Source: Planctomycetaceae bacterium
Lineage (GTDB): Bacteria; Planctomycetota; PLA2
Direction: 5' to 3'
Assembly: GCA_052388375.1 (NCBI GenBank)
Contig: JBQTIG010000011.1
Coordinates: 92,080 to 156,079, forward strand
DNA: 64,000 nt
Shown here: positions 8,790-50,810 of the stretch, piece by piece
Layout: every line of letters begins with the position of its first letter
How positions within the stretch are numbered: position 1 is the first letter of the stretch
Notes under the pieces: generated by a model
The model's database searches: none
Told to the model about the DNA's origin: nothing
Seen by the model: the letters and a program-made list of their open reading frames with translations, nothing else
Translations under genes and position numbers: made by a program

Positions 8790-8867
8790 GGTGGATATAG
8801 CTCAGTTGGTTAGAGCACCAGACTGTGGATCTGGGGGTCGGCGGTTCAAATCCGCTTATCCACCCCA
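8790..8867 (+). tRNA. tRNA-His (GTG) with G-1 and encoded CCA
   Basis: GGTGGATATAGCTCAGTTGGTTAGAGC...anticodon loop CTGTGGA...TTCAAATCCGCTTATCCACCCCA; antisense ORF 8488..8868 has typical tRNA-derived translation. Confidence 0.85.
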
Positions 8868-15417: not shown

Positions 15418-16172
15418 TCGCGCAGATCGACCTTCCCCCGCCCCCCATCCTCGCGGCGTGCGGCGCGGGGCTCGCGCTCCTCCTGCCGCTCGTCGCGAGG
15501 GCGCGGCGCGGCGCGGCGTTTCCCGAGCGCCACCCCGCCCCCTTCCTGCCCGCCTCCCCCGCCCCGCTGCTCCTCGCCGGCTTCGGCCTGCTCCTCCTCA
15601 CGCATCCGCTCATGCTCCCCGCGCACAAAGGCTGGGGGCCGTTCCTGGCGCTGGGAGGGGGCGCTCTCCTCGTGGCCGCGTCGCTCGCCGTCTGGTTCTT
15701 CCTGCTTCGCAAGGTCTTCCGGCCGCGCGGTTCGGATGCGCGGCGCGCGGGAGAGGGCCTCGTGATCTGCGCCGCCTCGCTGCCGCTGGTCTACGGCGCC
15801 GGGGTGCTGATGCAGGCGTTCGGCATCGACGAAGTCCAATCCTCGGTGGATGAGATCGCCCAGCGCCGTCCGGGATGGGTGGTGAAGGCGGTGTTCGCGG
15901 TGGCCGTGGCGCCGGTCGTGGAGGAGGTCATCTTCCGGGGATGCGTCTACCCCGCGCTGCGCGCGATCCACGGTTGGCGGCCCGCCCTCCTCGTGAGCGC
16001 GGTGCTGTTCGGCCTCGTCCATGCGGTCCCCGCGGTCATCCTGCCCATGATCCTCTTCGGCCTCGCCCTCGGCTGGCTGGCGGAGCGGACGGGGTCCCTG
16101 CTCGCCCCCGTCGTCGCGCACGCAGCCTTCAACGGCCTCACGGTGGCCACGCTCCTCGTCTACGGCCGGTAG
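15414..16172 (+). CDS. CPBP family intramembrane glutamic endopeptidase (CAAX protease/Abi-like)
   Basis: EEVIFRG, FGLVH, HAAFN motifs; multiple TM helices; TTG start overlapping thiG stop by 4 nt (start uncertain). Confidence 0.6.
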   Translation: MIAQIDLPPPPILAACGAGLALLLPLVARARRGAAFPERHPAPFLPASPAPLLLAGFGLLLLTHPLMLPAHKGWGPFLALGGGALLVAASLAVWFFLLRKVFRPRGSDARRAGEGLVICAASLPLVYGAGVLMQAFGIDEVQSSVDEIAQRRPGWVVKAVFAVAVAPVVEEVIFRGCVYPALRAIHGWRPALLVSAVLFGLVHAVPAVILPMILFGLALGWLAERTGSLLAPVVAHAAFNGLTVATLLVYGR

Positions 16173-16214
16173 CGCATTGCCAGCGGGGCCCGGGCCGCGT
16201 ATTCTCCGCCCGCG

Positions 16215-16721
16215 ATGGCGGAGCGGGCGATGCGGACGCGGGGCGGCGCACTCGTCGCTTCGACGGCGGTCGTGGAGGGCGATGTCGCGCTGGGGGAGCG
16301 CGTGAGCGTCTGGTGGAACGCCGTGCTGCGCGGCGACGACGCGCCCATCGCCGTGGGTCCCGGCACCAACCTGCAGGATCTCGTCCTGGTCCACCCCGAC
16401 CCCGGGATCCCTCTCGTCATCGGACGGGACGTCACCGTGGGGCACCACGCCATCCTGCACTGCGCGCGCATCGGCGATCGCGCCCTCATCGGGATGGGAT
16501 GCATCCTGCTCAAGGGAGCCGTCATCGGAGAGGAGGCGGTGGTGGCGGCCGGTGCCCTCGTGCCGGAGGGGATGGAGGTGCCGGCGCGCGCGGTGGTGGC
16601 TGGCGTGCCGGCCAAGGTGAAGCGGGAGGCCACCCGGGAGGAGATCGCCGCCGCGCTCCCGCGCGCGGCGAAGTACTGGGCCACGGCCCAGGAACGGGCG
16701 GGAGGGGGGCGGGGGCCGTGA
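16215..16721 (+). CDS. Gamma-class carbonic anhydrase family protein (hexapeptide repeat, YrdA/PaaY-like)
   Basis: 168 aa; left-handed beta-helix hexapeptide repeats and conserved His ligands (VHP..., GHHAILH). Confidence 0.8.
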   Translation: MAERAMRTRGGALVASTAVVEGDVALGERVSVWWNAVLRGDDAPIAVGPGTNLQDLVLVHPDPGIPLVIGRDVTVGHHAILHCARIGDRALIGMGCILLKGAVIGEEAVVAAGALVPEGMEVPARAVVAGVPAKVKREATREEIAAALPRAAKYWATAQERAGGGRGP

Positions 16722-18277
16722 CGGAGCGGCTCGCCTCGCTTCTCGGCATCGTCACGCTTGTCGGCATCGCCTACGCCTGCAGCACCGACCGGCGCCGCGT
16801 GCCCTGGCGCATCGTCGTGGTGGGGATCCTCCTCCAGTTCTACCTCGCGCTGTTCCTCGTGCGCGTGGAGTGGGTGCCGGTGACGCTCACCGCGGCGGCG
16901 GCCGTCTGCGCCGTCGTCCTTGTTCTCGACGGGATTCGCCAGTTGGGAGGGCACTGGGCGTCCACGGCGCGGGGCCTCGGGCTCGTTGGATTCGCGGTCA
17001 CCTTCGTGTGGGCCATCGTCTTGGGAGGGAAGGAGAGTCTTGGCCTCTCCACCCTCGCGGCGCTGGTCGGCTTCGGCCTGCTCCTGGGCGCGCGCCCCGA
17101 CACGCGGCGATCGTTCTGCGCGGCCGCCGCCCTCGGCGGGTGCGTCGCCCCGGTGCTGCTCCTCTGGCGCGGTGCGCTGCCCCGCGATTTCGTCTTCCGC
17201 TCTTTCGAAGGGCTCGGGAGCGGCGTCGCCTGGGTCGCCGGATTCGCCGCGAAGGGCGCGGACCAGGTTTTCGGAGGCCTGCGCACCGGGGGGGGATTCG
17301 TCTTCGCCATCGAGGTGGGGTCGATCATCCTCCTGTTCAGCGCCCTGCTCTCCGTTCTCTACTACGTGGGCTTCCTGCCCTGGCTCGTCGGGTGGATGGC
17401 GCGCCTTCTCCATCGTGCGCTGGGCGTGAGCGGGGCGGAGTCCCTCGTCACGGCGTCCAACATCTTCCTGGGCCAGACGGAAGCGCCCCTCGTCGTGCGC
17501 CCCTATCTCGATCGCATGACGCAGAGCGAGACGAATGCGCTCATGACCGGGGGCTTCGCCACCATCGCCGGAAGCGTCCTCGCGGCCTACGTCCAGATGC
17601 TGAACCAAGCGGGGCTCTCCCGCGGCGCCGCCGACCTTATCGCCGCTTCGGTGATGAGCGCGCCCGCGGCGTTCGTGTTCGCCAAGTTGTTCGTACCGGA
17701 GACGGAGATCCCCGAGACGCTGCAGGGGGCGAAGCTGGAGCGGGAGCAGGTGGGGTCGAGCCTGCTCGACGCGCTGGCTGGCGGCGTGACCGCGGGATTG
17801 CGGCTGGCGATCAACGTCGTCGCGATGCTCCTCGTCTTCTACGCGTTCATCGCCATGCTGAACGCGGCGGTGGACTGGGCGGCCCGCGAATTCCTGACCG
17901 TCGAGAAGCCGGTCACCTTCCAGAGAATCTACTCCTACGCGTTCTGGCCGCTGGCATGGCTGATGGGAGTGCCCTCCCACGAGTGCTTGAACGTGGGGCA
18001 GCTGCTCGGAACCAAGACGATCTTCAACGAGTTCGTGGGCTACATGGAGCTCTCCGGCATGCTGCGCAACGGCGAGATCTCCACTCGCTCGGCGGTCCTC
18101 TCTACCTACGTCCTCTGCGGATTCGCCAACTTCATGTCCATCGGCATCCAGATCGGCGGCCTCTCCGGCCTCTGCCCCGCGCGCCGCGGCTCCTACGTCA
18201 AGCTCGCCTTCCGAGCGATGGTCGCCGGATCCTTCGCCTGCCAGCTCACCGCCTGCATCGTCAGCCTCCTCTACTGA
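16718..18277 (+). CDS. nupC: NupC/CNT family concentrative nucleoside transporter
   Basis: GTG start overlapping previous stop (GTGA); CNT motifs GFATIAGSVLAAYV and YVLCGFANFMSIGIQIGG; about 519 aa with N-terminal extra TM region. Confidence 0.78.
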   Translation: MTERLASLLGIVTLVGIAYACSTDRRRVPWRIVVVGILLQFYLALFLVRVEWVPVTLTAAAAVCAVVLVLDGIRQLGGHWASTARGLGLVGFAVTFVWAIVLGGKESLGLSTLAALVGFGLLLGARPDTRRSFCAAAALGGCVAPVLLLWRGALPRDFVFRSFEGLGSGVAWVAGFAAKGADQVFGGLRTGGGFVFAIEVGSIILLFSALLSVLYYVGFLPWLVGWMARLLHRALGVSGAESLVTASNIFLGQTEAPLVVRPYLDRMTQSETNALMTGGFATIAGSVLAAYVQMLNQAGLSRGAADLIAASVMSAPAAFVFAKLFVPETEIPETLQGAKLEREQVGSSLLDALAGGVTAGLRLAINVVAMLLVFYAFIAMLNAAVDWAAREFLTVEKPVTFQRIYSYAFWPLAWLMGVPSHECLNVGQLLGTKTIFNEFVGYMELSGMLRNGEISTRSAVLSTYVLCGFANFMSIGIQIGGLSGLCPARRGSYVKLAFRAMVAGSFACQLTACIVSLLY

Positions 18278-18423
18278 CTGTCAGGCGTGCCAATGGCGTA
18301 AGATGCTATTTGCAAAGTGGTTATGAGCGCGACGTGCGGCACTCGTGCCGCAGGGAGACGACTGGCCCCGAGGGGGAGCCTGCGCCCCCCTCTTCCAGGA
18401 TCTCCTCCGGCAAACCCCAATCC

Positions 18424-18900
18424 CTAGAACGGGATGCCGATGATGCGGGTCTCGAAGACCATGCGATCCGCGAGGAACCCCTGGGCGTCGAAAATGGCGC
18501 GGCGGGGTTTCAGTTCGTGCGACTTTCCCACCACGATCAGGCGGTCCCCGGGCACTACGGTGCCGCGAAACCGGGTGTTTTCGATGCCCCCGAAGCCAAA
18601 GAACTTCTCCACCTCGGGGAACGCGCAGCGCCAGAAAAAACTGCAGAGCTGCGCCGCGGTCTCCACCATGAGGACCCCGGGGAAAAGCGGCCTTCCCGGG
18701 ATGTGGCCCCGCGCCCAGAAGGGCTCCTTGGGGATGCGGTTTTCCCCCACGATCGCGCCCTCTTCGGGGCGAAACGAGAGGATGGCGGTCAGCAGCTCCA
18801 TCTCGTATCGGTGGGGGTTCCGGCGGCGGATCTCCTCCGGCCCGAACTCCACGTGATCCAGGTCGATGCGGGAGAGGTCTACGAGCAGTTCCGGGGGCAT
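18424..18900 (-). CDS. fabZ: 3-hydroxyacyl-ACP dehydratase FabZ (hotdog fold)
   Basis: 158 aa; FabZ catalytic His/Glu context (HIPGRPLFPGVLMVETAAQ). Confidence 0.8.
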   Translation of the reverse strand: MPPELLVDLSRIDLDHVEFGPEEIRRRNPHRYEMELLTAILSFRPEEGAIVGENRIPKEPFWARGHIPGRPLFPGVLMVETAAQLCSFFWRCAFPEVEKFFGFGGIENTRFRGTVVPGDRLIVVGKSHELKPRRAIFDAQGFLADRMVFETRIIGIPF

Positions 18901-18979
18901 TCCCCTGAAGGGTAGCGGAAACCGCCAGGGATTGGGTGCCCCCGCCTTGTTATCCTAGGGGGCGGGCAGGAAACTCTGC

Positions 18980-19744
18980 ATGCGCACCCTTTGGACGCTC
19001 GTCCTCATCGTCGCCTTGTCCGTCGCGGACGACGAGCCGTCGCCTCCGCCCGAGCCCAAACCCAGACTGGCCGGCGAAGTGGAGGTGGGCGAGACCGGCG
19101 TGAAGATCGAGGATCCCGCCGTCGCCCGCGACAAGATCGCCCGCTTCCAGAGTGCATACAAGGAAGCGGACGAGGATACGGCGAAGGCGGAGCTGGTGAA
19201 GAAGCTGGGCGACTGGGACCACCCCGAGATCCTCAAGACGCTGGCGAAGATGATCGGGGACCGAAATCGTTTCGCGGCGATCGAGGCGGCGTTGGGGTGC
19301 GCGCGGCAGAGCGATCCGGGGAAGGCGGGCGCGGCGCTCCACCGCGCCCTGCTGAGCGAGAAGCGCATCGACGTCGCCTGCGCCCTTCTCGTCGCCCTCG
19401 GGAGAACAGGCTACGTCAAGGCCTCCAAGGACGCCGAGAAGTGGTTCAAGAAGGACAGCGCGGAGGGGCGCAAGGCCGCCGCGCGCTACTTCGGCGGCGT
19501 GAAGGCGAAGGAGGCGTTCCGCCTCCTCGCCGAGGAGCTCGACGAGCCGAAACCGGGCCGCATCGACGATCCGAAGAATCCCCCCGCCTCCTGGTGGAAG
19601 GTGCGCTGGGAGGAGTGGGACTCCAATCTGCCCTACGTGAAGAAGGCGCTGAGCGAAATCGTGCCAGGCGAGACGTTCGACACGCGCAAGGAGGCGGAGG
19701 AGTGGGCGCGGGTCGAGGGGCGCAAGCACGGCATCGAGTGGTGA
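18980..19744 (+). CDS. Secreted HEAT-like repeat protein
   Basis: Signal peptide MRTLWTLVLIVALSVA; repeated helical KxLG/ALG units. Confidence 0.5.
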   Translation: MRTLWTLVLIVALSVADDEPSPPPEPKPRLAGEVEVGETGVKIEDPAVARDKIARFQSAYKEADEDTAKAELVKKLGDWDHPEILKTLAKMIGDRNRFAAIEAALGCARQSDPGKAGAALHRALLSEKRIDVACALLVALGRTGYVKASKDAEKWFKKDSAEGRKAAARYFGGVKAKEAFRLLAEELDEPKPGRIDDPKNPPASWWKVRWEEWDSNLPYVKKALSEIVPGETFDTRKEAEEWARVEGRKHGIEW

Positions 19745-19747
19745 CGC

Positions 19748-20536
19748 TCACGCCCACGCGCGACAGTGTGGCCGGAGCGGGCAGGGTGCGCAGAGCGCCG
19801 CGACCGGACGCCGCGGGCAGTCGCCGGAGATCCCCAGGTGCGCGAGGGCGAAGTCGTAGCGCACGGGGTCGAGCGGATCGAAACGCCGCAGGGCGGCCGT
19901 CACCTCCAGCGCCGCCCGCCAGGAGGGCGATTTCCGCTCCGTGAGACCGAGCCAGTAGGCGATTCGGTGCACATGGGTATCGAGGGGGACCACGAGCCGG
20001 CGGGTGGGAAGGCCGCTCCAGAGCCCCAGATCGGCCCCGTCGTCCGGCCGCGCCACCCAGCGGAGAAAGAGCAGGGAGCGCTTGCATGCGCTCCCGTCCG
20101 CCGGCCGCGGCAGCAGGAAGCGCACTCCGGGGGTGGGGCGCCTGCCCCGGAGTTCGCGCGAGAAGCCGTCCAGCCCGGCGCCCACATCCTCCGCCTCCGG
20201 GCGGTCGTGCCGGAGGAAGGCCGCCTCGAGGGACCCGTGGCGCGCCCGCGCCTCGCGGAGGGAGCCGAAGAGCCGCGCGAGATCCGCTTCGCCGATCCAG
20301 CGGTAGCGGAACCCGCGCGGGGGGCCCCCGCCCCCCTCCCACGCTTCGATGGCTCGGGCCGCCGCGACGCGGATCGACGCCGCGTTCCCGAAGGCGAGAC
20401 ATGCGGCGAGGAGCGCCGCGCCCTCGCGATCCCGCGAAGCGCGCACGACCCCGAGAGGATCGCGCGCCAGTCGCCGCGGATCGGCGCGACCCGCGAGCCG
20501 CTCCAGACGGACGCCCAGGCCCACCATGGCGCCCAT
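19748..20536 (-). CDS. TIGR02757/DUF2400 family protein
   Basis: LDTHVHRIAYWLGLT and DPVRYDFALAHLGISGDC conserved blocks. Confidence 0.55.
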   Translation of the reverse strand: MGAMVGLGVRLERLAGRADPRRLARDPLGVVRASRDREGAALLAACLAFGNAASIRVAAARAIEAWEGGGGPPRGFRYRWIGEADLARLFGSLREARARHGSLEAAFLRHDRPEAEDVGAGLDGFSRELRGRRPTPGVRFLLPRPADGSACKRSLLFLRWVARPDDGADLGLWSGLPTRRLVVPLDTHVHRIAYWLGLTERKSPSWRAALEVTAALRRFDPLDPVRYDFALAHLGISGDCPRRPVAALCAPCPLRPHCRAWA

Positions 20537-20583
20537 CGTAGCCGCGCCGCTCCGCGTACAATGCTCCGCCGGGAAACGAGCGA

Positions 20584-22251
20584 TTGGCCCTCATCCTGCC
20601 CTGCCCCTCCTGCGGCGCGCCCGCCGACGCTTCCGCACAACGACCCGGCGCGCGATTCCCCTGCGCCCATTGCGGCAAGGTGATCGCGGTGCCGGCGTCG
20701 GGACCGGCGGTGCGCGCGGGGAGGCGCCGCGCCCTCGCCGTCGTCGGCCTGCTGGTCGCCGCGGGGGGCCTCTACGCCCTCCTGCCGCGGGACCGCACTC
20801 CGGAGGCGCCGGCGCAGGATAGGGCCACGGCGACGCTGGATCGCGAGACATGGTGGACTCGCGCCACGGCGCGCCCCTCCGGCGCGGAGCGTCTCCTGGC
20901 CCCGCGCGAATTGCGCGCGGTGCTCGCGGAAGGCGAGCGGCGGGGATTCTCGGCCGACGCGACCTGGTGGGCGGAACGGCGGCGATGGGCCTTCGAGCGC
21001 ATCCTCTCGATGGACCCCCTCGACACGGAGGCGAACACCGCCGCGGGCCGGCGCGTGCTCCAGACCTACCCCGGGTTTCGAGAGCTCTGGGACCGGATGC
21101 TGGCGGCCCGCACGCTCCACGAGACGACCGAAACGCTGCTGGGCCTCTACGACGACCGCGTGCAGGCCGACGAGGCGATCTTCCTGGACGAGGAGGAGTG
21201 GGCGCGCACTTCGGCCCTTTTGAAGGACGCCGCGGAGCACCTCCGCCGCATGGGAGAGGATCCGGCCTACCGCGCCCTCCAGCGCGCGCTCCAGATGGTC
21301 CGGAGCGACGGCGCGCTGCAGGAGTACGCGTTCGTCCGGATGCAGGCGGGGCCCTTCCTGGTCTTCTACACGGCGCGCGATCTGCGGCGCATCCGGGGGG
21401 AGGGCGAAGAGGCGGAGAACGCGCGCATCGCCGGGCGCGCCGCGATCTACGAGAAAGCCCTCGCCGCCCGCGCCGCGATCTACACCGGGCTCCTCGACGA
21501 CCTCAGGGCGCTCTACCCCGAGATTCTCGCCGCCCACCCGATCGCGCCCGGCGATCTCTTCTTCCAGTGGATCTTCGCCGACGAGGCGACCTATCTCGAC
21601 TTCTGCGAGCGCACCGGAAGCCGCGGCCAGGTGCGCGCCTACCGCGCGGGCCATCTGCGCAAGCGGGACGGCTGGGCGTTCCTGTTCGAGCCGGCGGAGG
21701 AACGCCCCGAGGCGAGCGACCCCGTGGGGGAGAGCGCCGCCTACCTGGGCTGCCTGCAACTGCTCACGCACTGGTCCATCGACCCCGCCGTTCCCGGCAC
21801 GCGGCACATCGACAGCTCCCGCGCGCTCTGGATCCAGGAAGGGTGGGCGTCGCTCCTGGCGTCGCGTCGCGTCGCGAAGAGCGAGCTGGGCGCCTCGCTC
21901 CGGCAGGCCAACCTCGCCGGACGGGCGCTGCCCTCGATCCAGCGCATCGTCGATCGCGAGAGCTGGCACGAGCTGGAGCAGTACCGGGAGCCGGTGGAGG
22001 AGACCGCCGAGGGGCCGCCCCCGCTCACGGTGCGGGAGTCCTTCGCGGATCTGGCCTGGGTGCTGACCGAGGTCCTCCACGGCGGGAACTACCGGCCGGG
22101 ATTCTCCCGATTCCTCCTCGCCCAGATCGAGGGGAGGCGGGGCGGCGAGGACTCCTTCGAGGCCTGCTTCCTCGCCGGGGGTCGCGGCGGATGGGCCGTC
22201 CTCGACGGCTTGGTGCACCAACGCGTGGCAAGCCTCGGTCCGGGCAGGTAG
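20584..22251 (+). CDS. Zinc-ribbon/TM/DUF1570-like domain protein, HExxH motif degenerate (putative pseudoprotease)
   Basis: N-terminal CPSCG..CAHCG zinc ribbon, one TM, C-terminal domain paralogous to next gene but LQLLTH replaces HESTH; only TTG start available after upstream stop. Confidence 0.6.
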   Translation: MALILPCPSCGAPADASAQRPGARFPCAHCGKVIAVPASGPAVRAGRRRALAVVGLLVAAGGLYALLPRDRTPEAPAQDRATATLDRETWWTRATARPSGAERLLAPRELRAVLAEGERRGFSADATWWAERRRWAFERILSMDPLDTEANTAAGRRVLQTYPGFRELWDRMLAARTLHETTETLLGLYDDRVQADEAIFLDEEEWARTSALLKDAAEHLRRMGEDPAYRALQRALQMVRSDGALQEYAFVRMQAGPFLVFYTARDLRRIRGEGEEAENARIAGRAAIYEKALAARAAIYTGLLDDLRALYPEILAAHPIAPGDLFFQWIFADEATYLDFCERTGSRGQVRAYRAGHLRKRDGWAFLFEPAEERPEASDPVGESAAYLGCLQLLTHWSIDPAVPGTRHIDSSRALWIQEGWASLLASRRVAKSELGASLRQANLAGRALPSIQRIVDRESWHELEQYREPVEETAEGPPPLTVRESFADLAWVLTEVLHGGNYRPGFSRFLLAQIEGRRGGEDSFEACFLAGGRGGWAVLDGLVHQRVASLGPGR

Positions 22252-22262
22252 AAAGGAACACC

Positions 22263-24278
22263 ATGAGAACCCAGAAGTGCGGCGGTTGCGGATCGGTGCT
22301 CGACGTTGCGCAGCTGCAGAAGGGGTCCAAGTTCGCCTGTTCCGCCTGCGGCACGGTGCTCACCGTGGGGGAGGCGACGGCGGCGAAGCGTTCCCTCAAG
22401 GACGCGGGACCGGCCTTCAAGCCGAAGGCAGCCCAGGAGAAGGAGGCCCCCGCCACCGTGCGCCGCAGTCGTCGCGCCCCCGGGGACGCGCCCGATGCCG
22501 TGGAGGCGCAGCGCAGCCGCATGCCGCTCTTCGTGGCGGGAGGAGCGATCGTCGTGGCGGTGGTGGTCGCGATCGCGCTCGGCTCCGGCAAGGGAGGGGG
22601 CGGCGGCGGGACGATGACAGGGGGAGGGGGCGGGGGCGGCGCGGCCCGCGAGCCCGCGCCGGTGAAGGTGCCGCCGGACCAGTGGTGGCTCCAAGCGACG
22701 ACCAATCCCGACCGCTCGCCCAAGACCCTCGACGCCGCGGCGATCGAGACGATCCTCGCCGAGGCGCAGCGGAGCGGGTTCACCGCAGACCCTGGCTTCT
22801 GGAAGCCCAAGGCGGAGAAGCTCTACGGCGATCTCCTCAAGCTCAAGCCGTCCCATCGCGCGGCCAACGAGTTCTTCGGGCGTAAGTCCTTGCGGGACTA
22901 TCCCGGCTTCGCCGACGTCTGGCGCTCCATGGAGGAGAGCTTCCGCGAGCTTCCGCGCGAGCGGCGCGACCTCCTCACGGCCTACGAGGAGCGGGTGCAG
23001 CAGGGGGATCCGCTCTGGATGAGCCCCGAGGAGTACGAAGCGGAGAAGGCTCGCTTGGACGACTTCGTCGCGTGGAAGAAGCAGTGCGATGCCGACCCGA
23101 TCTTCAAGGAGATCCAGGCGGGCATCGTGCGCGTCCTCGAGACCGATCCGGTCCTCTCGCACTACGGCGCCACCTACATCGACGCCCACCCCTTCATTCT
23201 CTTCGTCGGCTCGCGCGAGCTCTTTCCCCAGCCGGTCCAGGGGGAGACCGCCGAGGAGGCGAAGGCGCGCATCGCCAAGAAGACCGAGGAGCTGCAGCCG
23301 CGCCTCCAGCGGCTGCGCATGCTCTACCGGGCCTACGTCGCGAACTTCGAGGAGCGCTACCGCAAGCCGCTGGGCCTCCCGGAGTTCAAGCCCACCGACC
23401 TGCTCTTCCAGTGGGTCTTCGAGGATCGCGAGGGGTTCGATCGCTACAACAAGGACGCCACAGGGCACGAGATCGCCGGCGGCATCCTGGGCTACTTCTC
23501 GCCGAAGAACCGCTGGGTCTTCCTCTACGAGCGCGAGGACGCGGAGGCGGAGGGGATCAGCAACGAGAACGTCATGGCCCACGAGTCCACCCACCAGATC
23601 CAGTGGTTCTTCTCCAAGGATCCCGAGAAGCGGGGCGTGAACTACAGCGAGGAGTTCGAGTCGGCCTGGTTCGGGGAGGGCTGGGCCGAGTACGTGGGCG
23701 GATCCTGCCGCACCCATCCCGAGACCGGGGAGACCCAGTTCTCCTGGTATGCCCTCGGGCGCGCGGACTGGCTCCGCTTCATGAAGAAGAACGGCATCCC
23801 GCTCATCCCCATCCGCTACCTGGCGGAGCGCGGCAACTACTCCGAGTTCAACCTGTGGATCGCGAACTTCTGGCTGGAGGAGGCGCGCAGCAAGGCCTCC
23901 GAGGCGGCCGAGAAGTTCCTCAACCAGCCGGTCTACTTCAGCTCGCTCTACGCGCAGGCCTGGTACTTCGTCTACTTCCTCAATGAGTTCGAGAACGGAA
24001 AGTACCGGAAGCCCTTCCTGGGGTTCGTCCTCACGGCCATGCGCGGCCGCCAGAAGCCGGCGGCCTACCGTAGCGATCCCGCCGTGGCGGAGCGCTGGCC
24101 CAGCGTCATCAGCGCCTTCGAGGAGATCTTCGCGATGAAGACCCCGGAGGACTGGGAGCGTCTCCAGCGGGAACATGACCAGTTCCTCGAGAAGGTCCTG
24201 CAGGATGCGCCGGTGCCCAAGAAGCGTGAGGGGGCGAAGAGCGAGGAGGGCGCGAAGAGCGACGAGGGGGGGGAGTAG
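22263..24278 (+). CDS. Zinc-ribbon/TM/DUF1570-like putative zinc metalloprotease (HExxH)
   Basis: MRTQKCGGCG..CSACG zinc ribbon, TM, poly-Gly linker, HESTHQ metal-binding motif plus downstream EGWAEY; strong RBS AAAGGAA; internal Met of ORF 20850..24278. Confidence 0.68.
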   Translation: MRTQKCGGCGSVLDVAQLQKGSKFACSACGTVLTVGEATAAKRSLKDAGPAFKPKAAQEKEAPATVRRSRRAPGDAPDAVEAQRSRMPLFVAGGAIVVAVVVAIALGSGKGGGGGGTMTGGGGGGGAAREPAPVKVPPDQWWLQATTNPDRSPKTLDAAAIETILAEAQRSGFTADPGFWKPKAEKLYGDLLKLKPSHRAANEFFGRKSLRDYPGFADVWRSMEESFRELPRERRDLLTAYEERVQQGDPLWMSPEEYEAEKARLDDFVAWKKQCDADPIFKEIQAGIVRVLETDPVLSHYGATYIDAHPFILFVGSRELFPQPVQGETAEEAKARIAKKTEELQPRLQRLRMLYRAYVANFEERYRKPLGLPEFKPTDLLFQWVFEDREGFDRYNKDATGHEIAGGILGYFSPKNRWVFLYEREDAEAEGISNENVMAHESTHQIQWFFSKDPEKRGVNYSEEFESAWFGEGWAEYVGGSCRTHPETGETQFSWYALGRADWLRFMKKNGIPLIPIRYLAERGNYSEFNLWIANFWLEEARSKASEAAEKFLNQPVYFSSLYAQAWYFVYFLNEFENGKYRKPFLGFVLTAMRGRQKPAAYRSDPAVAERWPSVISAFEEIFAMKTPEDWERLQREHDQFLEKVLQDAPVPKKREGAKSEEGAKSDEGGE

Positions 24279-24280
24279 CG

Positions 24281-24730
24281 CTACTTACCCTGGGGCTGCC
24301 AGAGTTCGTAGCCGGGGAGGCGCTCCCGCATCCGGGCCAGCGCCTCCTCGTCCCCAGCCTCGCTGAAGGCGCGGAACGCTTCGCGCCAGCGGCCCGCTTT
24401 CTCCGCGGCGCAACCGGCCTTCTTCCACTCCGCAGCGGCGACCGCGCGACCCTCCCTGCGGAGCGCGAGCAGGAGGATCACCTGCCCCTCCTCCGCCGCT
24501 CGCTGCGAGAGCCGAGCGATTCCGGGTTCGTCGTGAGCGAGCAGTAAGAGATCGAGCGCCTCGGTCAGGCGCCCCGCCCGTTCGAGGCTCGCAGCGGCGG
24601 CGATGCGCTCGGCGGAAGTCGTCTTGAGCGAGTACTTGATCTCCCGGAGCTCGAGCGTGTTGGGGAGTCCATCAGCCATGGGGGAACTATACCGCGACGC
24701 TCCCTCGGGCCTCGTGTCGTCGTAACTCAT
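24281..24730 (-). CDS. Hypothetical helical protein
   Basis: ORF 149 aa (or 132 aa from MADGLPN); no recognisable family; convergent with previous gene. Confidence 0.4.
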   Translation of the reverse strand: MSYDDTRPEGASRYSSPMADGLPNTLELREIKYSLKTTSAERIAAAASLERAGRLTEALDLLLLAHDEPGIARLSQRAAEEGQVILLLALRREGRAVAAAEWKKAGCAAEKAGRWREAFRAFSEAGDEEALARMRERLPGYELWQPQGK

Positions 24731-24824
24731 TGTGCGTGAAACGGTTATGTTTACGGATCGATGGGCTCGCGTGCCAAGTGAGCGTAAACCCTTGCCACTT
24801 CGCGGGTTGCCGAAAAAAATGGCG

Positions 24825-24852
24825 TTGACTGCGGCAGGAGGGAGTCTAGATT
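24825..24852 (+). promoter_or_regulatory. Sigma70-like promoter (TTGACT-16nt-TAGATT) upstream of HU-like gene
   Basis: Located in AT-richer 195-bp intergenic region about 75 nt upstream of ATG at 24927. Confidence 0.4.
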
Positions 24853-24926
24853 CAGGGACGTAAGAGCCGATGGATAAAGGATATAAGGCGTTCCGGCTCT
24901 AGCCGACCGGAAATGAGTGACCAAGC

Positions 24927-25319
24927 ATGACCGGTGAGCAACATTCCTCCCCCTCCCGCGGCCCCTCGGCCGTTCCCGGGGTCGCAGCACAGCGGCCCCA
25001 TGCCCCTCCCGCCCGGGTCTCCCGCGACGACGACTCCACCATCACGAAAAAGGAGTTGGTGAGCCGGATCGCGGATCGCACGGGCCAGACGAAGGTGATC
25101 ACCAAGGACATCATTCAGATGTTCCTGGACGAGATCATCACGGAGCTGGCCCGCGGCAACCGGCTCGAGTTTCGCGAATTCGGGGTGTTCGAGATCAAGA
25201 AGCGGGCCGCACGAAAGGCGCAAAACCCTCGCACCCTCGAAAAGGTGAGCGTCCCGGCCAAGAAGATCGTGAAATTCAAGGTCGGACGGCTCATGAAGGA
25301 GCGCGTCGGACTCGCCTAG
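24927..25319 (+). CDS. HU/IHF family DNA-binding protein with N-terminal extension
   Basis: C-terminal 95 aa match HU/IHF fold (KKELVSRIADRTG..., RNPRT arm); 35-aa N-terminal Pro/Ala-rich extension. Confidence 0.8.
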   Translation: MTGEQHSSPSRGPSAVPGVAAQRPHAPPARVSRDDDSTITKKELVSRIADRTGQTKVITKDIIQMFLDEIITELARGNRLEFREFGVFEIKKRAARKAQNPRTLEKVSVPAKKIVKFKVGRLMKERVGLA

Positions 25320-25637
25320 GGCCGGCGGGTTCGCGGGATGCGGCCCGCGCAGGTCGCCGGCTCGCCTCGACCGCATCGTGGGACCCGCCGTCGCGGGGGC
25401 TGGAGCTGCTCCTCCGGAAGGCTCCCCTCCCGGCGTACTCCCGCGCGGCCATGGCCCTCAGTGCCGGCGACCCTGTCCGGCCTGGGGCGCGAGCGCCCGG
25501 CAAGGCCCCCCCCGGTCTTGCTCTCCTCGACCATGGGGGGCGGGAGAGTACGAGCGTCCCGGTTCGATGCCTCTCCCGGGGCCGGGCCGCACGATCTCTC
25601 CTGAAACTCGCCGCGTCCGCCCGTTTACAATCGGGAC

Positions 25638-26762
25638 ATGCCCCCCGAAAAGGCGAGCCTCGTTCCCGGGGAGATCCAGCTTCACTTCTGTCAGCGCTGC
25701 GGGATCTCCATCCCGGTCACGGAGGTGGCGAGCGGGAGAGCCACGGCTGCGCCCGGCGGGTACGTGTGCAGCACCTGCACGAGCGCGGAGGCGCCGGCCA
25801 CGGGCGCTCCCGTCTCCGCGAGGCAGGGGCTGGGAGCCGTCGCCGTCGCGGCGTTGCTTTTCCTGGTCGGGGCGACCGCCTTTCTCCTCTATCGCGAGAC
25901 GACACGCACCGCTCCCGTCCTGAAGCTGCCGCCCACGGCGGCACCCGAGGATGTGGCGGGGGTGAGCCGCCGCCTGGAAGAGGCGCAGCAGCGCTCGCGC
26001 GAGGGCTTCGTCGCGCTTTCCGAGGCGCTGCAGGCGCAACAGCAGCGGATCGATGCGCTTCGGCGAGACCAGGCGGAGGCGGAGCAGGCGGCCCTGGACC
26101 GCGAGAAGGCCTCCCTCGAGCGCGATCGCAATCTCCTCGCGGCCATCGACGCGCTGGCCAGCCGCACCGGCATCAGCCGAGGCGACCTGACGGAGATCCT
26201 GGCGCGCGAGATGGAGAAGTTCCGCAGGGAGGCCGCCGCGCAGAAGACGACGCAGCCCACCCCGACGGAGACGCCGAAACAGCCCGATCCGCCGCCGGTC
26301 GATCCGCGGCAAGCGGAGCAGGATCGCCTGGTCCGGGAATACGTCTTGAAGCTGCAGTCCAAGGAGGCCACCCCGCGGGAGCGCTACACCGCGGCCGTCC
26401 GGCTGGGCGAGCTCATGGACCCCTCCGCCATCACTCCCCTCATCCAGGTGCTGGAGAGCGACGAGGACGATCTCGTCTTGCGCGGCGCGGCCTGGTCCCT
26501 CGGGAAGTTCGGGAAGGTCGCGGTGCGGGCGATTCCCGCCCTCATCAAGCAGGTCGGCGAGAAGCGTGAATACGTCGGCTACATGTGCGACCGCGCCCTG
26601 AGCGACATCTCCCTCGACGCGCTCGGCGCCAGGATCACCTTCGGCTACGACCCGACGATGACTTCCAAGCAGCGGCGCGCTATCGAGAAGCAGTGGGAGG
26701 AGTGGTGGACGAAGAACCGCCCTCTTCTCGAACGGGAGGGCGGTTCGGCGGGAGCCGGCTGA
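25638..26762 (+). CDS. Zinc-ribbon/TM/coiled-coil/HEAT (PBS-lyase-like) repeat protein
   Basis: N-terminal CQRCG..CSTC, one TM helix, long coiled coil (QQRIDALRRDQAEAEQ), C-terminal HEAT-like repeats (DEDDLVLRGAAWSLGKFG). Confidence 0.6.
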   Translation: MPPEKASLVPGEIQLHFCQRCGISIPVTEVASGRATAAPGGYVCSTCTSAEAPATGAPVSARQGLGAVAVAALLFLVGATAFLLYRETTRTAPVLKLPPTAAPEDVAGVSRRLEEAQQRSREGFVALSEALQAQQQRIDALRRDQAEAEQAALDREKASLERDRNLLAAIDALASRTGISRGDLTEILAREMEKFRREAAAQKTTQPTPTETPKQPDPPPVDPRQAEQDRLVREYVLKLQSKEATPRERYTAAVRLGELMDPSAITPLIQVLESDEDDLVLRGAAWSLGKFGKVAVRAIPALIKQVGEKREYVGYMCDRALSDISLDALGARITFGYDPTMTSKQRRAIEKQWEEWWTKNRPLLEREGGSAGAG

Positions 26763-50733: not shown

Positions 50734-50810
50734 GCGCCCGTAGCTCAACTGGATAGAGCGCCTGGCTACGGACCAGGAGGCTGAGGGTTCAAATCCTTCC
50801 GGGCGTACCA
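50734..50810 (+). tRNA. tRNA-Arg (ACG) with encoded CCA
   Basis: GCGCCCGTAGCTCAACTGGATAGAGCG CCTGG CTACGGA CCAGG...GGTTCAAATCC; antisense ORF 50533..50811 typical of tRNA. Confidence 0.85.

Follow-up and report, generated by a model that had tools for sequence, protein, structure and literature searches.

A predicted M9-like gluzincin and its degenerate paralog encoded side by side in an uncultured planctomycete

The interval 20584-24278 of a 64-kb window of DNA from Planctomycetaceae bacterium, an uncultured planctomycete, was analyzed for a pair of adjacent genes that are here called A and B. "The window" refers throughout to the whole 64-kb stretch, and positions are those of the window unless a different contig is named. 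A and B are the two real genes of the flagged interval, and they lie on the same strand, 11 nt apart. The gene layout is as follows.

20584-22251, plus strand: gene A, 555 residues, TTG start; pseudo-peptidase, predicted to be a bitopic membrane protein, whose M9-like gluzincin ectodomain is catalytically dead
22252-22262, plus strand: spacer between A and B, 11 nt, with a Shine-Dalgarno-like AAAGGAA
22263-24278, plus strand: gene B, 671 residues, ATG start; predicted active metallopeptidase, likewise a predicted bitopic membrane protein, whose M9-like gluzincin ectodomain has every residue of the catalytic constellation

The product and start of A are identical to entry P0011 of the NCBI annotation of this metagenome-assembled genome (MAG), where it is named 'hypothetical protein ACT4PV_01685 [Planctomycetaceae bacterium]'. 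For B, the sequence GAAAGGAAC directly precedes the ATG, and the residues MRTQKC form the start of every B ortholog. No promoter or terminator was found between A and B by consensus scan, and no further family members were found elsewhere within the 64-kb window. The G+C content of the window is ~70%, and long spurious open reading frames (ORFs) are therefore common. Three such ORFs of 695-1142 residues overlap A and B (19900-22221 on the minus strand, 20850-24278 on the plus strand and 22089-24176 on the minus strand). All three were rejected as genes and attributed to the high G+C content; the 1142-residue ORF is B's own frame, open upstream of the true B start.

The products of A and B were aligned by BLASTP with 26% identity over 474 residues (E 4e-43), and their N-terminal ribbons aligned as a separate match (E 3e-5). 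Similarity of this degree cannot be put down to chance, and A and B are ancient tandem duplicates. Both follow a common plan of an N-terminal CxxC-x16-CxxC ribbon, one transmembrane (TM) helix and a large outer domain, which bears out the tandem paralogy and the shared architecture described in the original prediction. The domain common to both is about 470-520 residues long, rather than the 450 residues first proposed. The corresponding features are listed below.

20602-20673, plus strand (A residues 7-30): A zinc ribbon, CPSCGAPADASAQRPGARFPCAHC, CxxC-x16-CxxC, predicted cytoplasmic
20731-20787, plus strand (A residues 50-68): A TM helix, Kyte-Doolittle mean 2.12, with RAGRRR just before it
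20836-22233, plus strand (A residues ~85-550): predicted A extracytoplasmic domain, an N-terminal helical part followed by a gluzincin-fold part
22278-22349, plus strand (B residues 6-29): B zinc ribbon, CGGCGSVLDVAQLQKGSKFACSAC, predicted cytoplasmic
22386-22427, plus strand (B residues 42-55): B linear motif, KRSLKDAGPAFKPK, conserved, predicted cytoplasmic, within a disordered basic linker
22527-22583, plus strand (B residues 89-107): B TM helix, Kyte-Doolittle mean 2.76, with RRSRR..RSR before it
22584-22643, plus strand (B residues 108-127): B Gly-rich linker, SGKGGGGGGTMTGGGGGGGA, a low-complexity tether joining the TM helix to the ectodomain

Each ribbon contains two CxxC pairs and was modeled by AlphaFold2 as four short strands, with a predicted local distance difference test score (pLDDT) of 87-92 in A. 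The four Cys agree with the pattern expected of a zinc ribbon, in which two CxxC pairs on beta-hairpins are separated by 15-17 residues, and both ribbons are putative zinc binders; zinc-ribbon Pfam models gave sub-threshold matches only for A, B and a set of 25 aligned family members. Among B orthologs the ribbon is the most conserved segment, and in this region L13, K23, F24, C26, C29, L33 and G36 do not vary across 16 sequences of the B1 and B2 groups, including those with a degenerate catalytic site. The linear motif that follows has the consensus KRSLKDSGPAFxPR, in which S44 and G49 are near-invariant, and the linker around it was modeled with pLDDT <50. The Gly-rich tether of B differs in length and sequence from one ortholog to the next and has no counterpart in A.

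Segments rich in K/R lie on the N-terminal side of both TM helices, and the net charge flanking the A helix is +4 before and 0 after. The ribbon is placed in the cytoplasm, as had been proposed, because of the positive-inside rule and because in most A orthologs a lipoprotein signal peptide replaces the ribbon and TM helix. The lipoprotein form of these orthologs also places the large domain outside the cytoplasm, and both ectodomains are predicted to lie against the cytoplasmic membrane on its periplasmic side. An anti-sigma-factor reading of the ribbon was set aside. The zinc motif of anti-sigma factors is HxxxCxxC, that of A and B is CxxC..CxxC, and no sigma-factor gene is adjacent.

The two ectodomains differ at the positions of a metallopeptidase active site, for which the following features were assigned.

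23580-23594, plus strand (B residues 440-444): HESTH, two predicted zinc-ligand His and a predicted catalytic Glu; aligned with ColG HEYTH in the profile search of the PDB
23676-23693, plus strand (B residues 472-477): EGWAEY, containing E476 and the predicted third zinc ligand E472, which lies 32 residues downstream of H440
23949-23951, plus strand: B Tyr563, in an LYAQ motif, candidate transition-state-stabilizing Tyr
21742-21756, plus strand (A residues 387-391): YLGCL, degenerate, aligned to HExxH of B
21835-21855, plus strand (A residues 418-424): QEGWASL, Glu-Gly of the third-ligand helix kept (E419 G420), second Glu absent

In B, HESTH and E472 are located on predicted helices 434-450 and 468-478, and the EGWAEY helix aligned to DEGTAEF of ColG with identical spacing. 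The combination of HExxH and a downstream Glu that characterizes gluzincins, which had been recognized in B from the start, is thus present at the spacing seen in ColG. A catalytic role for Y563 is proposed by analogy. A six-residue constellation of H440, E441, H444, E472, E476 and Y563 is complete in B. Five of these six residues are lost in A, where the equivalent of E472 alone remains and the gluzincin combination is absent. At the HExxH position itself, the substitutions in A relative to B are His to Tyr, Glu to Leu and His to Leu. The degeneracy of A had been noted in the original prediction, with LQLLTH as the counterpart of HESTH. The degeneracy stands and the register does not: LQLLTH (A residues 391-396) begins four residues downstream of the true counterpart YLGCL, and the pairing of HESTH with YLGCL was given alike by pairwise BLASTP, by a MAFFT alignment of 25 sequences and by hmmalign. 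The Gln of LQLLTH corresponds to a conserved Gln after the second His in both families. The retention of EGWAS in A, also claimed previously, holds at the aligned place, and E472 and G473 (B numbering) are invariant in both families in the 25-sequence alignment.

Conservation of the site was scored over the 149 sequences that have a residue in each of the four HExxH/Glu columns, comprising the top matches, earlier homologs and the two window proteins; all sequences analyzed came from MAGs or metagenomes. HExxH plus the Glu was intact in 96 of these and degenerate in 53. Among the 96 intact members, E472 was conserved at 1.00, E476 at 0.96 and Y563 at 0.98, with A475 likewise at 0.96-0.98. Residues A475, E476 and Y563 were lost along with HExxH in the degenerate members: the equivalents of E476 and Y563 were kept in none of 21 A-clade sequences and in ~0.3 of the other degenerate members (~0.29 for Y563). 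This correlated loss is good evidence that the intact members are real enzymes using the six-residue constellation and that A is thoroughly dead. None of the six residues varies among the nine sequences of the B1 clade, to which the B of the window belongs, and conservation within the domain is highest in the site helices (0.80 and 0.81 vs 0.66). It can be argued from this conservation that selection on catalysis has continued in the lineage of the window, and B is most likely still a peptidase in this genome.

The A lineage has also been maintained. In a simple neighbor-joining tree of 64 near-full-length members, all A-type sequences formed one clade of more than 21 sequences, all with a degenerate site. 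The former active-site helices of A are conserved at 0.61 and 0.70 vs 0.60 for the rest of the domain, and at the former site itself the substituted Tyr and Leu are each conserved at 0.86 in the A clade and the third position is variable. The ratio of nonsynonymous to synonymous substitution rates (dN/dS) was calculated from one pair, the window and its closest related contig, L010 (87-90% protein identity), and was 0.152 for A, 0.161 for B and 0.086-0.179 for six neighboring genes. By these measures A is a conserved pseudo-peptidase that is still under purifying selection, in agreement with the status first suggested for it.

The fold of the ectodomains was assigned by profile and by structure prediction. 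Scans of A and B with the hidden Markov models of Pfam and NCBIfam (gathering cut-offs of 26 bits for Peptidase_M9 and 22 bits for DUF1570) gave no model above threshold for either protein. The best Pfam matches of B were to Peptidase_M9 (PF01752; 15.4 bits, E 0.012, cut-off 26) and M36, and A had no M9 match. Both proteins had been described as DUF1570-like, a label that has to be withdrawn: DUF1570 (PF07607) gave no match at E<=1 for A or B, and M9 is nearest by both profile and fold. When the 25 members of the alignment were scanned, Peptidase_M9 was the commonest Pfam match (8 of 25, best E 8.2e-5), and DUF1570 was matched by one (E 0.0045). No Pfam match to Peptidase_M9_N, PKD or collagen-binding domains was found in A or B. 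A profile of the 25 sequences searched against all PDB sequences matched only ColG and ColH (E 1.2e-4 to 8.5e-3), over a span that takes in the strands and both site helices, the one with HExxH and the one with the Glu. No gap interrupts this alignment between HExxH and the WFxEGxAE helix, which puts the Glu at +32 from the first His in the family and the collagenases alike. The features expected of M9, a third-ligand Glu about 28-30 residues after the second His and a (D/x)EGxAE(F/Y) helix, were both found in B and in the family profile.

AlphaFold2 models of the A and B monomers, built on the 25-sequence alignment, had mean pLDDT values of 87.6 for A and 81 for B, in which the domain blocks were mostly at 86-97. 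The two models have an identical order of helices and strands, with the strands followed by the two site helices, as in a thermolysin-like fold. Foldseek searches of the PDB returned ColH (9cme, E 1.5e-5) and Vibrio and Grimontia collagenases (E 1e-4 to 1.5e-3) for B, and the ColH and ColG peptidase domains (E 2e-4 to 7e-4) for A, in each case with a probability of 1.0. A second tier consisted of M1 aminopeptidases at E 0.015 or worse, with M3 peptidases as well; the top matches were exclusively MA(E), M9 first, for both models. Alignments to whole collagenase units extended over ~500-550 columns with a high root-mean-square deviation of 20-23 A. A span of this length may point to a collinear layout, in which the modeled ectodomains of A and B would resemble a two-part collagenase unit with an N-terminal helical domain followed by a peptidase domain. 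Taken together, profiles and models point to an ectodomain that is a gluzincin of clan MA(E), nearest to M9 yet outside M9 as currently modeled.

Ten loci with enough flanking sequence were compared, namely the window, L001, L004, L006, L007, L008, L010, L015, L021 and L022, with B identities ranging from 90% to 30%. A scan of genome contigs for additional loci gave at least seven, of which L015 was the new useful one. Gene A is directly upstream of B on the same strand in all ten loci, with spacers of 1-98 nt (<=15 nt in 8 of the 10). B is anchored by a ribbon and TM helix in all ten. A has this type of anchor only in the subclade of the window (the window, L010 and also P0013) and is apparently a lipoprotein, with a lipobox Cys, in the other loci except L004. 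At L004 the A gene call is truncated and its 'lipobox' is spurious: the A ortholog (L004 6361-7986), upstream of P0008, was called as 416 residues with the N-terminus missing and a separate 102-residue ORF before it, which may reflect faulty assembly, a frameshift or a wrongly placed start. The A site is degenerate in 10 of 10 loci. The state of the B site is as follows.

Window, L010, L001, L004, L006 and L008: B site intact (6 of 10 loci)
L007 9636-11531 (HALVH) and L015 6001-7935 (HVAIH): B catalytic Glu lost (2 of 10 loci)
L021 3530-5401 (SAAVQ, LG for EG) and L022 5001-6818 (RGGVQ): all B ligands lost (2 of 10 loci)

These inactivations of B were apparently repeated and independent. The surroundings of the pair are also conserved. 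A block of ~10 genes (~15875-26762 in the window) is syntenic with L001, L004, L006-L008, L010 and L022, in the order nucleoside transporter, FabA (minus strand), HEAT protein, DUF2400 (minus strand), A, B, a small ORF (minus strand), HU and a Zn-ribbon/TM/HEAT protein, with an aminotransferase further on. This synteny is unusually stable for genomes in which B is only 30-57% identical.

Two of the neighboring genes were inspected further. The small ORF at 24281-24730 (minus strand) encodes a small helical protein of 149 residues (129-132 in orthologs) with a dN/dS of 0.18 and no Pfam match; it is convergent with B, with 2 nt between the stop codons, and its position is kept in every related locus. 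The gene at 25638-26762 (plus strand) encodes a third membrane protein that opens with a zinc ribbon, CxxC-x21-CxxC, followed by one TM helix, a long coiled-coil-like stretch and HEAT_2/HEAT_PBS repeats. It is located three genes downstream of B in all loci with enough flank, and its ribbon is not obviously akin to those of A and B. The sole RNA genes detected in the window by ARAGORN and Rfam were tRNA-His(GTG) at 8791-8867 and tRNA-Arg(ACG) at 50734-50810, both on the plus strand.

The wider family was delimited by an exhaustive profile search of 1.84 billion representatives, which gave 703 clusters at E<=1e-3 and 258 at E<=1e-10. Members share the signature HE[GA]xHQL ... WFxEGxAE[YF], and many begin with a zinc ribbon. 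A Pfam scan of 10 distant members gave no match above threshold, the DUF1570 score of P0078 being 20.6 bits (cut-off 22). Source names, retrieved for these 10 clusters and for other members, were all 'hypothetical protein', and the named organisms were all Planctomycetota; no paper on this family was found in the literature, and the one paper found to mention DUF1570 had no bearing on it. A third paralog clade, represented by P0010, has an intact HELTH and a TM helix, lacks the ribbon and occurs as a singleton in another context. P0010 itself (L012 8001-9746) is located between two HEAT-repeat proteins of ~670 residues, and HEAT-repeat genes also flank A and B in the window (18980-19744 and 25638-26762). 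The family may recur beside HEAT proteins, though this could be a coincidence. Members of the P0010-like clade could conceivably compensate for catalysis lost elsewhere.

Several known systems were compared with the pair. The M9 collagenases (ColG/ColH and the Vibrio and Grimontia enzymes) are the best profile and fold match for both proteins and share with B the HExxH, the Glu of the EGxAE(F/Y) helix and the identical HExxH-to-E spacing. They differ in being secreted and in having PKD or collagen-binding domains, whereas A and B are predicted to be tethered to the membrane by a ribbon and TM helix or a lipid anchor and lack such domains. Collagen is an unlikely substrate for B because the host is a free-living planctomycete. 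DUF1570, of clan Peptidase_MA, is likewise a planctomycete-rich HExxH family, but it matched weakly only one of the 25 members and P0078, and M9 scored better and more often. The M1 aminopeptidases are characterized by HExxH-x18-E, a Glu helix of the form (N)EG(F/W)A and a catalytic Tyr. They resemble B in these features and are the second-tier fold match; they differ in that A and B lack the GxMEN exopeptidase motif and have other spacing, and the matches are weaker.

The closest mechanistic precedents are the degenerate LytM factors and the M16B heterodimers. The degenerate LytM (M23) proteins EnvC and NlpD are periplasmic, lack zinc ligands, are membrane- or lipid-anchored, and use the old groove to bind and control another envelope enzyme. 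They differ from A and B in having an unrelated fold, amidase partners instead of an active paralog, and FtsEX coupling instead of a zinc ribbon. In the M16B proteins TTHA1264/1265, SPH2681/2682 and AlbF/AlbE, neighboring genes encode the two chains of an active/inactive metallopeptidase heterodimer; the zinc motif is confined to one chain, and substrate handling requires the other, inactive one (PMC12731061). These heterodimers, and also MPP alpha/beta, resemble the A-B pair in being paralogous, with one zinc-motif chain, and in gene adjacency. They belong to another clan and fold (the inverzincin HxxEH clam-shell) and are soluble; a heterodimer of A and B is putative. In the iRhom/rhomboid and FtsHi/FtsH systems, a conserved dead paralog works with or regulates a membrane protease (PMC8197885, PMC13277793). 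These systems are eukaryotic with unrelated folds, and iRhoms regulate ADAM17 and not their own active paralog; the A-B pair is further unlike them in that both of its members are dead in some lineages.

The reading put forward here, with middling confidence, is that A and B work as a membrane-tethered pair on the periplasmic side, B being still a peptidase in this genome and A a partner without catalytic activity. The two genes would be transcribed together, and the two ectodomains would form one heteromeric unit. Here B would serve as a zinc endopeptidase that cleaves a periplasmic or envelope polypeptide. A would contribute, through a cleft that is conserved but holds no metal, a surface for binding or scaffolding, much as an M16B inactive chain or a degenerate LytM factor does. 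The B ribbon and the KRSLKDxGPAFxP motif would tie the unit to a cytoplasmic partner. A number of observations weigh against this proposal. The activity of B is predicted from residues alone, the Pfam M9 threshold was reached by neither protein, and the TM-scores of the models to collagenases are modest (0.3-0.47). No fused A-B (Rosetta-stone) protein was found among 168 family members; multiple 'stretches' in this search were split alignments of one domain and not two-domain proteins. Because the whole block is syntenic, with housekeeping FabA and HU included, the adjacency of A and B is by itself weak evidence of coupling. The dead B orthologs (4 of 10 loci) retain the ribbon, the TM helix and the neighboring A, and the conserved role of the pair therefore cannot depend on proteolysis by B. 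It also follows from these loci that A is not generally a regulator of B catalysis, and that such regulation is not its conserved purpose. The iRhom-like logic of the original prediction, in which a pseudoprotease regulates an active protease, is weakened accordingly. Since the pair and its invariant ribbon persist in several sister lineages in which the B site has died, the conserved core function is probably non-catalytic: a ligand or partner would be bound, binding would be coupled through the membrane to the ribbon, and proteolysis would be an extra kept in the lineage of the window.

Other explanations of the pair were weighed against this one. A may have been neofunctionalized independently as a stand-alone periplasmic or lipoprotein binder, its adjacency to B being a remnant of tandem duplication in a conserved gene order. 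The synteny of the entire block, which makes adjacency nonspecific to A and B, is consistent with this, as are the different anchors in most lineages (A a lipoprotein, B with ribbon and TM helix) and the existence of the third paralog, P0010 (HELTH), as a singleton elsewhere. Against it, A and B share a strand in every locus, their spacers measure 1-15 nt in 8 of 10 loci, and no promoter or terminator consensus separates them in the window. The pairing has also survived independent losses of the B site and the divergence of B to 30% identity; independence of A is, on balance, doubtful. A non-proteolytic transmembrane sensor or anchor was also considered. In this case ligand binding by the ectodomains would be the conserved function of both proteins, B would relay it to a cytoplasmic partner through the ribbon and KRSLKDxGPAF, and the HExxH of B in this genome would be a leftover or a zinc-dependent binding site and not a working peptidase site. 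Such a role would account for at least three to four losses in B of the Glu (L007, L015) or of every ligand (L021, L022) with ribbon, TM helix and A kept, for the ribbon being the most invariant B segment, and for the 53 of 149 scorable family representatives that are degenerate at the site. Against it stand the six residues that are strict in all nine B1 sequences and the site helices that are the best conserved, nor does a gene for a cytoplasmic partner, sigma factor or regulator stand out beside the pair; this role is unlikely.

The TTG start of A, its lack of HExxH and the absence of any database annotation might suggest a decaying pseudogene, or a motif difference created by the alignment. 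The intact 555-codon frame, a dN/dS of 0.152 like that of its neighbors and a confident model (pLDDT 87.6) speak against decay, the agreement of three alignment methods on one register speaks against an artefact, and the monophyly of the more than 21 A-clade sequences sharing the Y-L substitutions speaks against both. These readings are essentially excluded by the dN/dS, the monophyly and the register agreement, and we give them almost no credence. A bolder reading of the pair, which we regard as improbable, is a two-protein transmembrane device of a Planctomycetota lineage, in which A and B would be collagenase-fold periplasmic ligand receptors, A always dead and B optionally so, with occupancy relayed through the B ribbon and KRSLKDxGPAF. 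If this were true, the wider family with ribbon, TM helix and HExxH would be one of signaling or anchoring and not of degradation.

No established view is overturned by these findings, since tandem enzyme/pseudo-enzyme pairs and membrane-tethered zincins are well known. What is now described is a sizeable gluzincin family of 703 representative clusters with no annotation and no Pfam or NCBIfam model, which combines a collagenase-like fold with an unusual ribbon-TM-ectodomain architecture. For annotation, A should not be called a protease, and B orthologs should not be assumed to be active. The loci compared here also provide a natural series, in which one syntenic enzyme/pseudo-enzyme pair occurs with B intact, Glu-less or fully degenerate, and this series allows a direct test of the role of a pseudo-peptidase partner once catalysis is gone.

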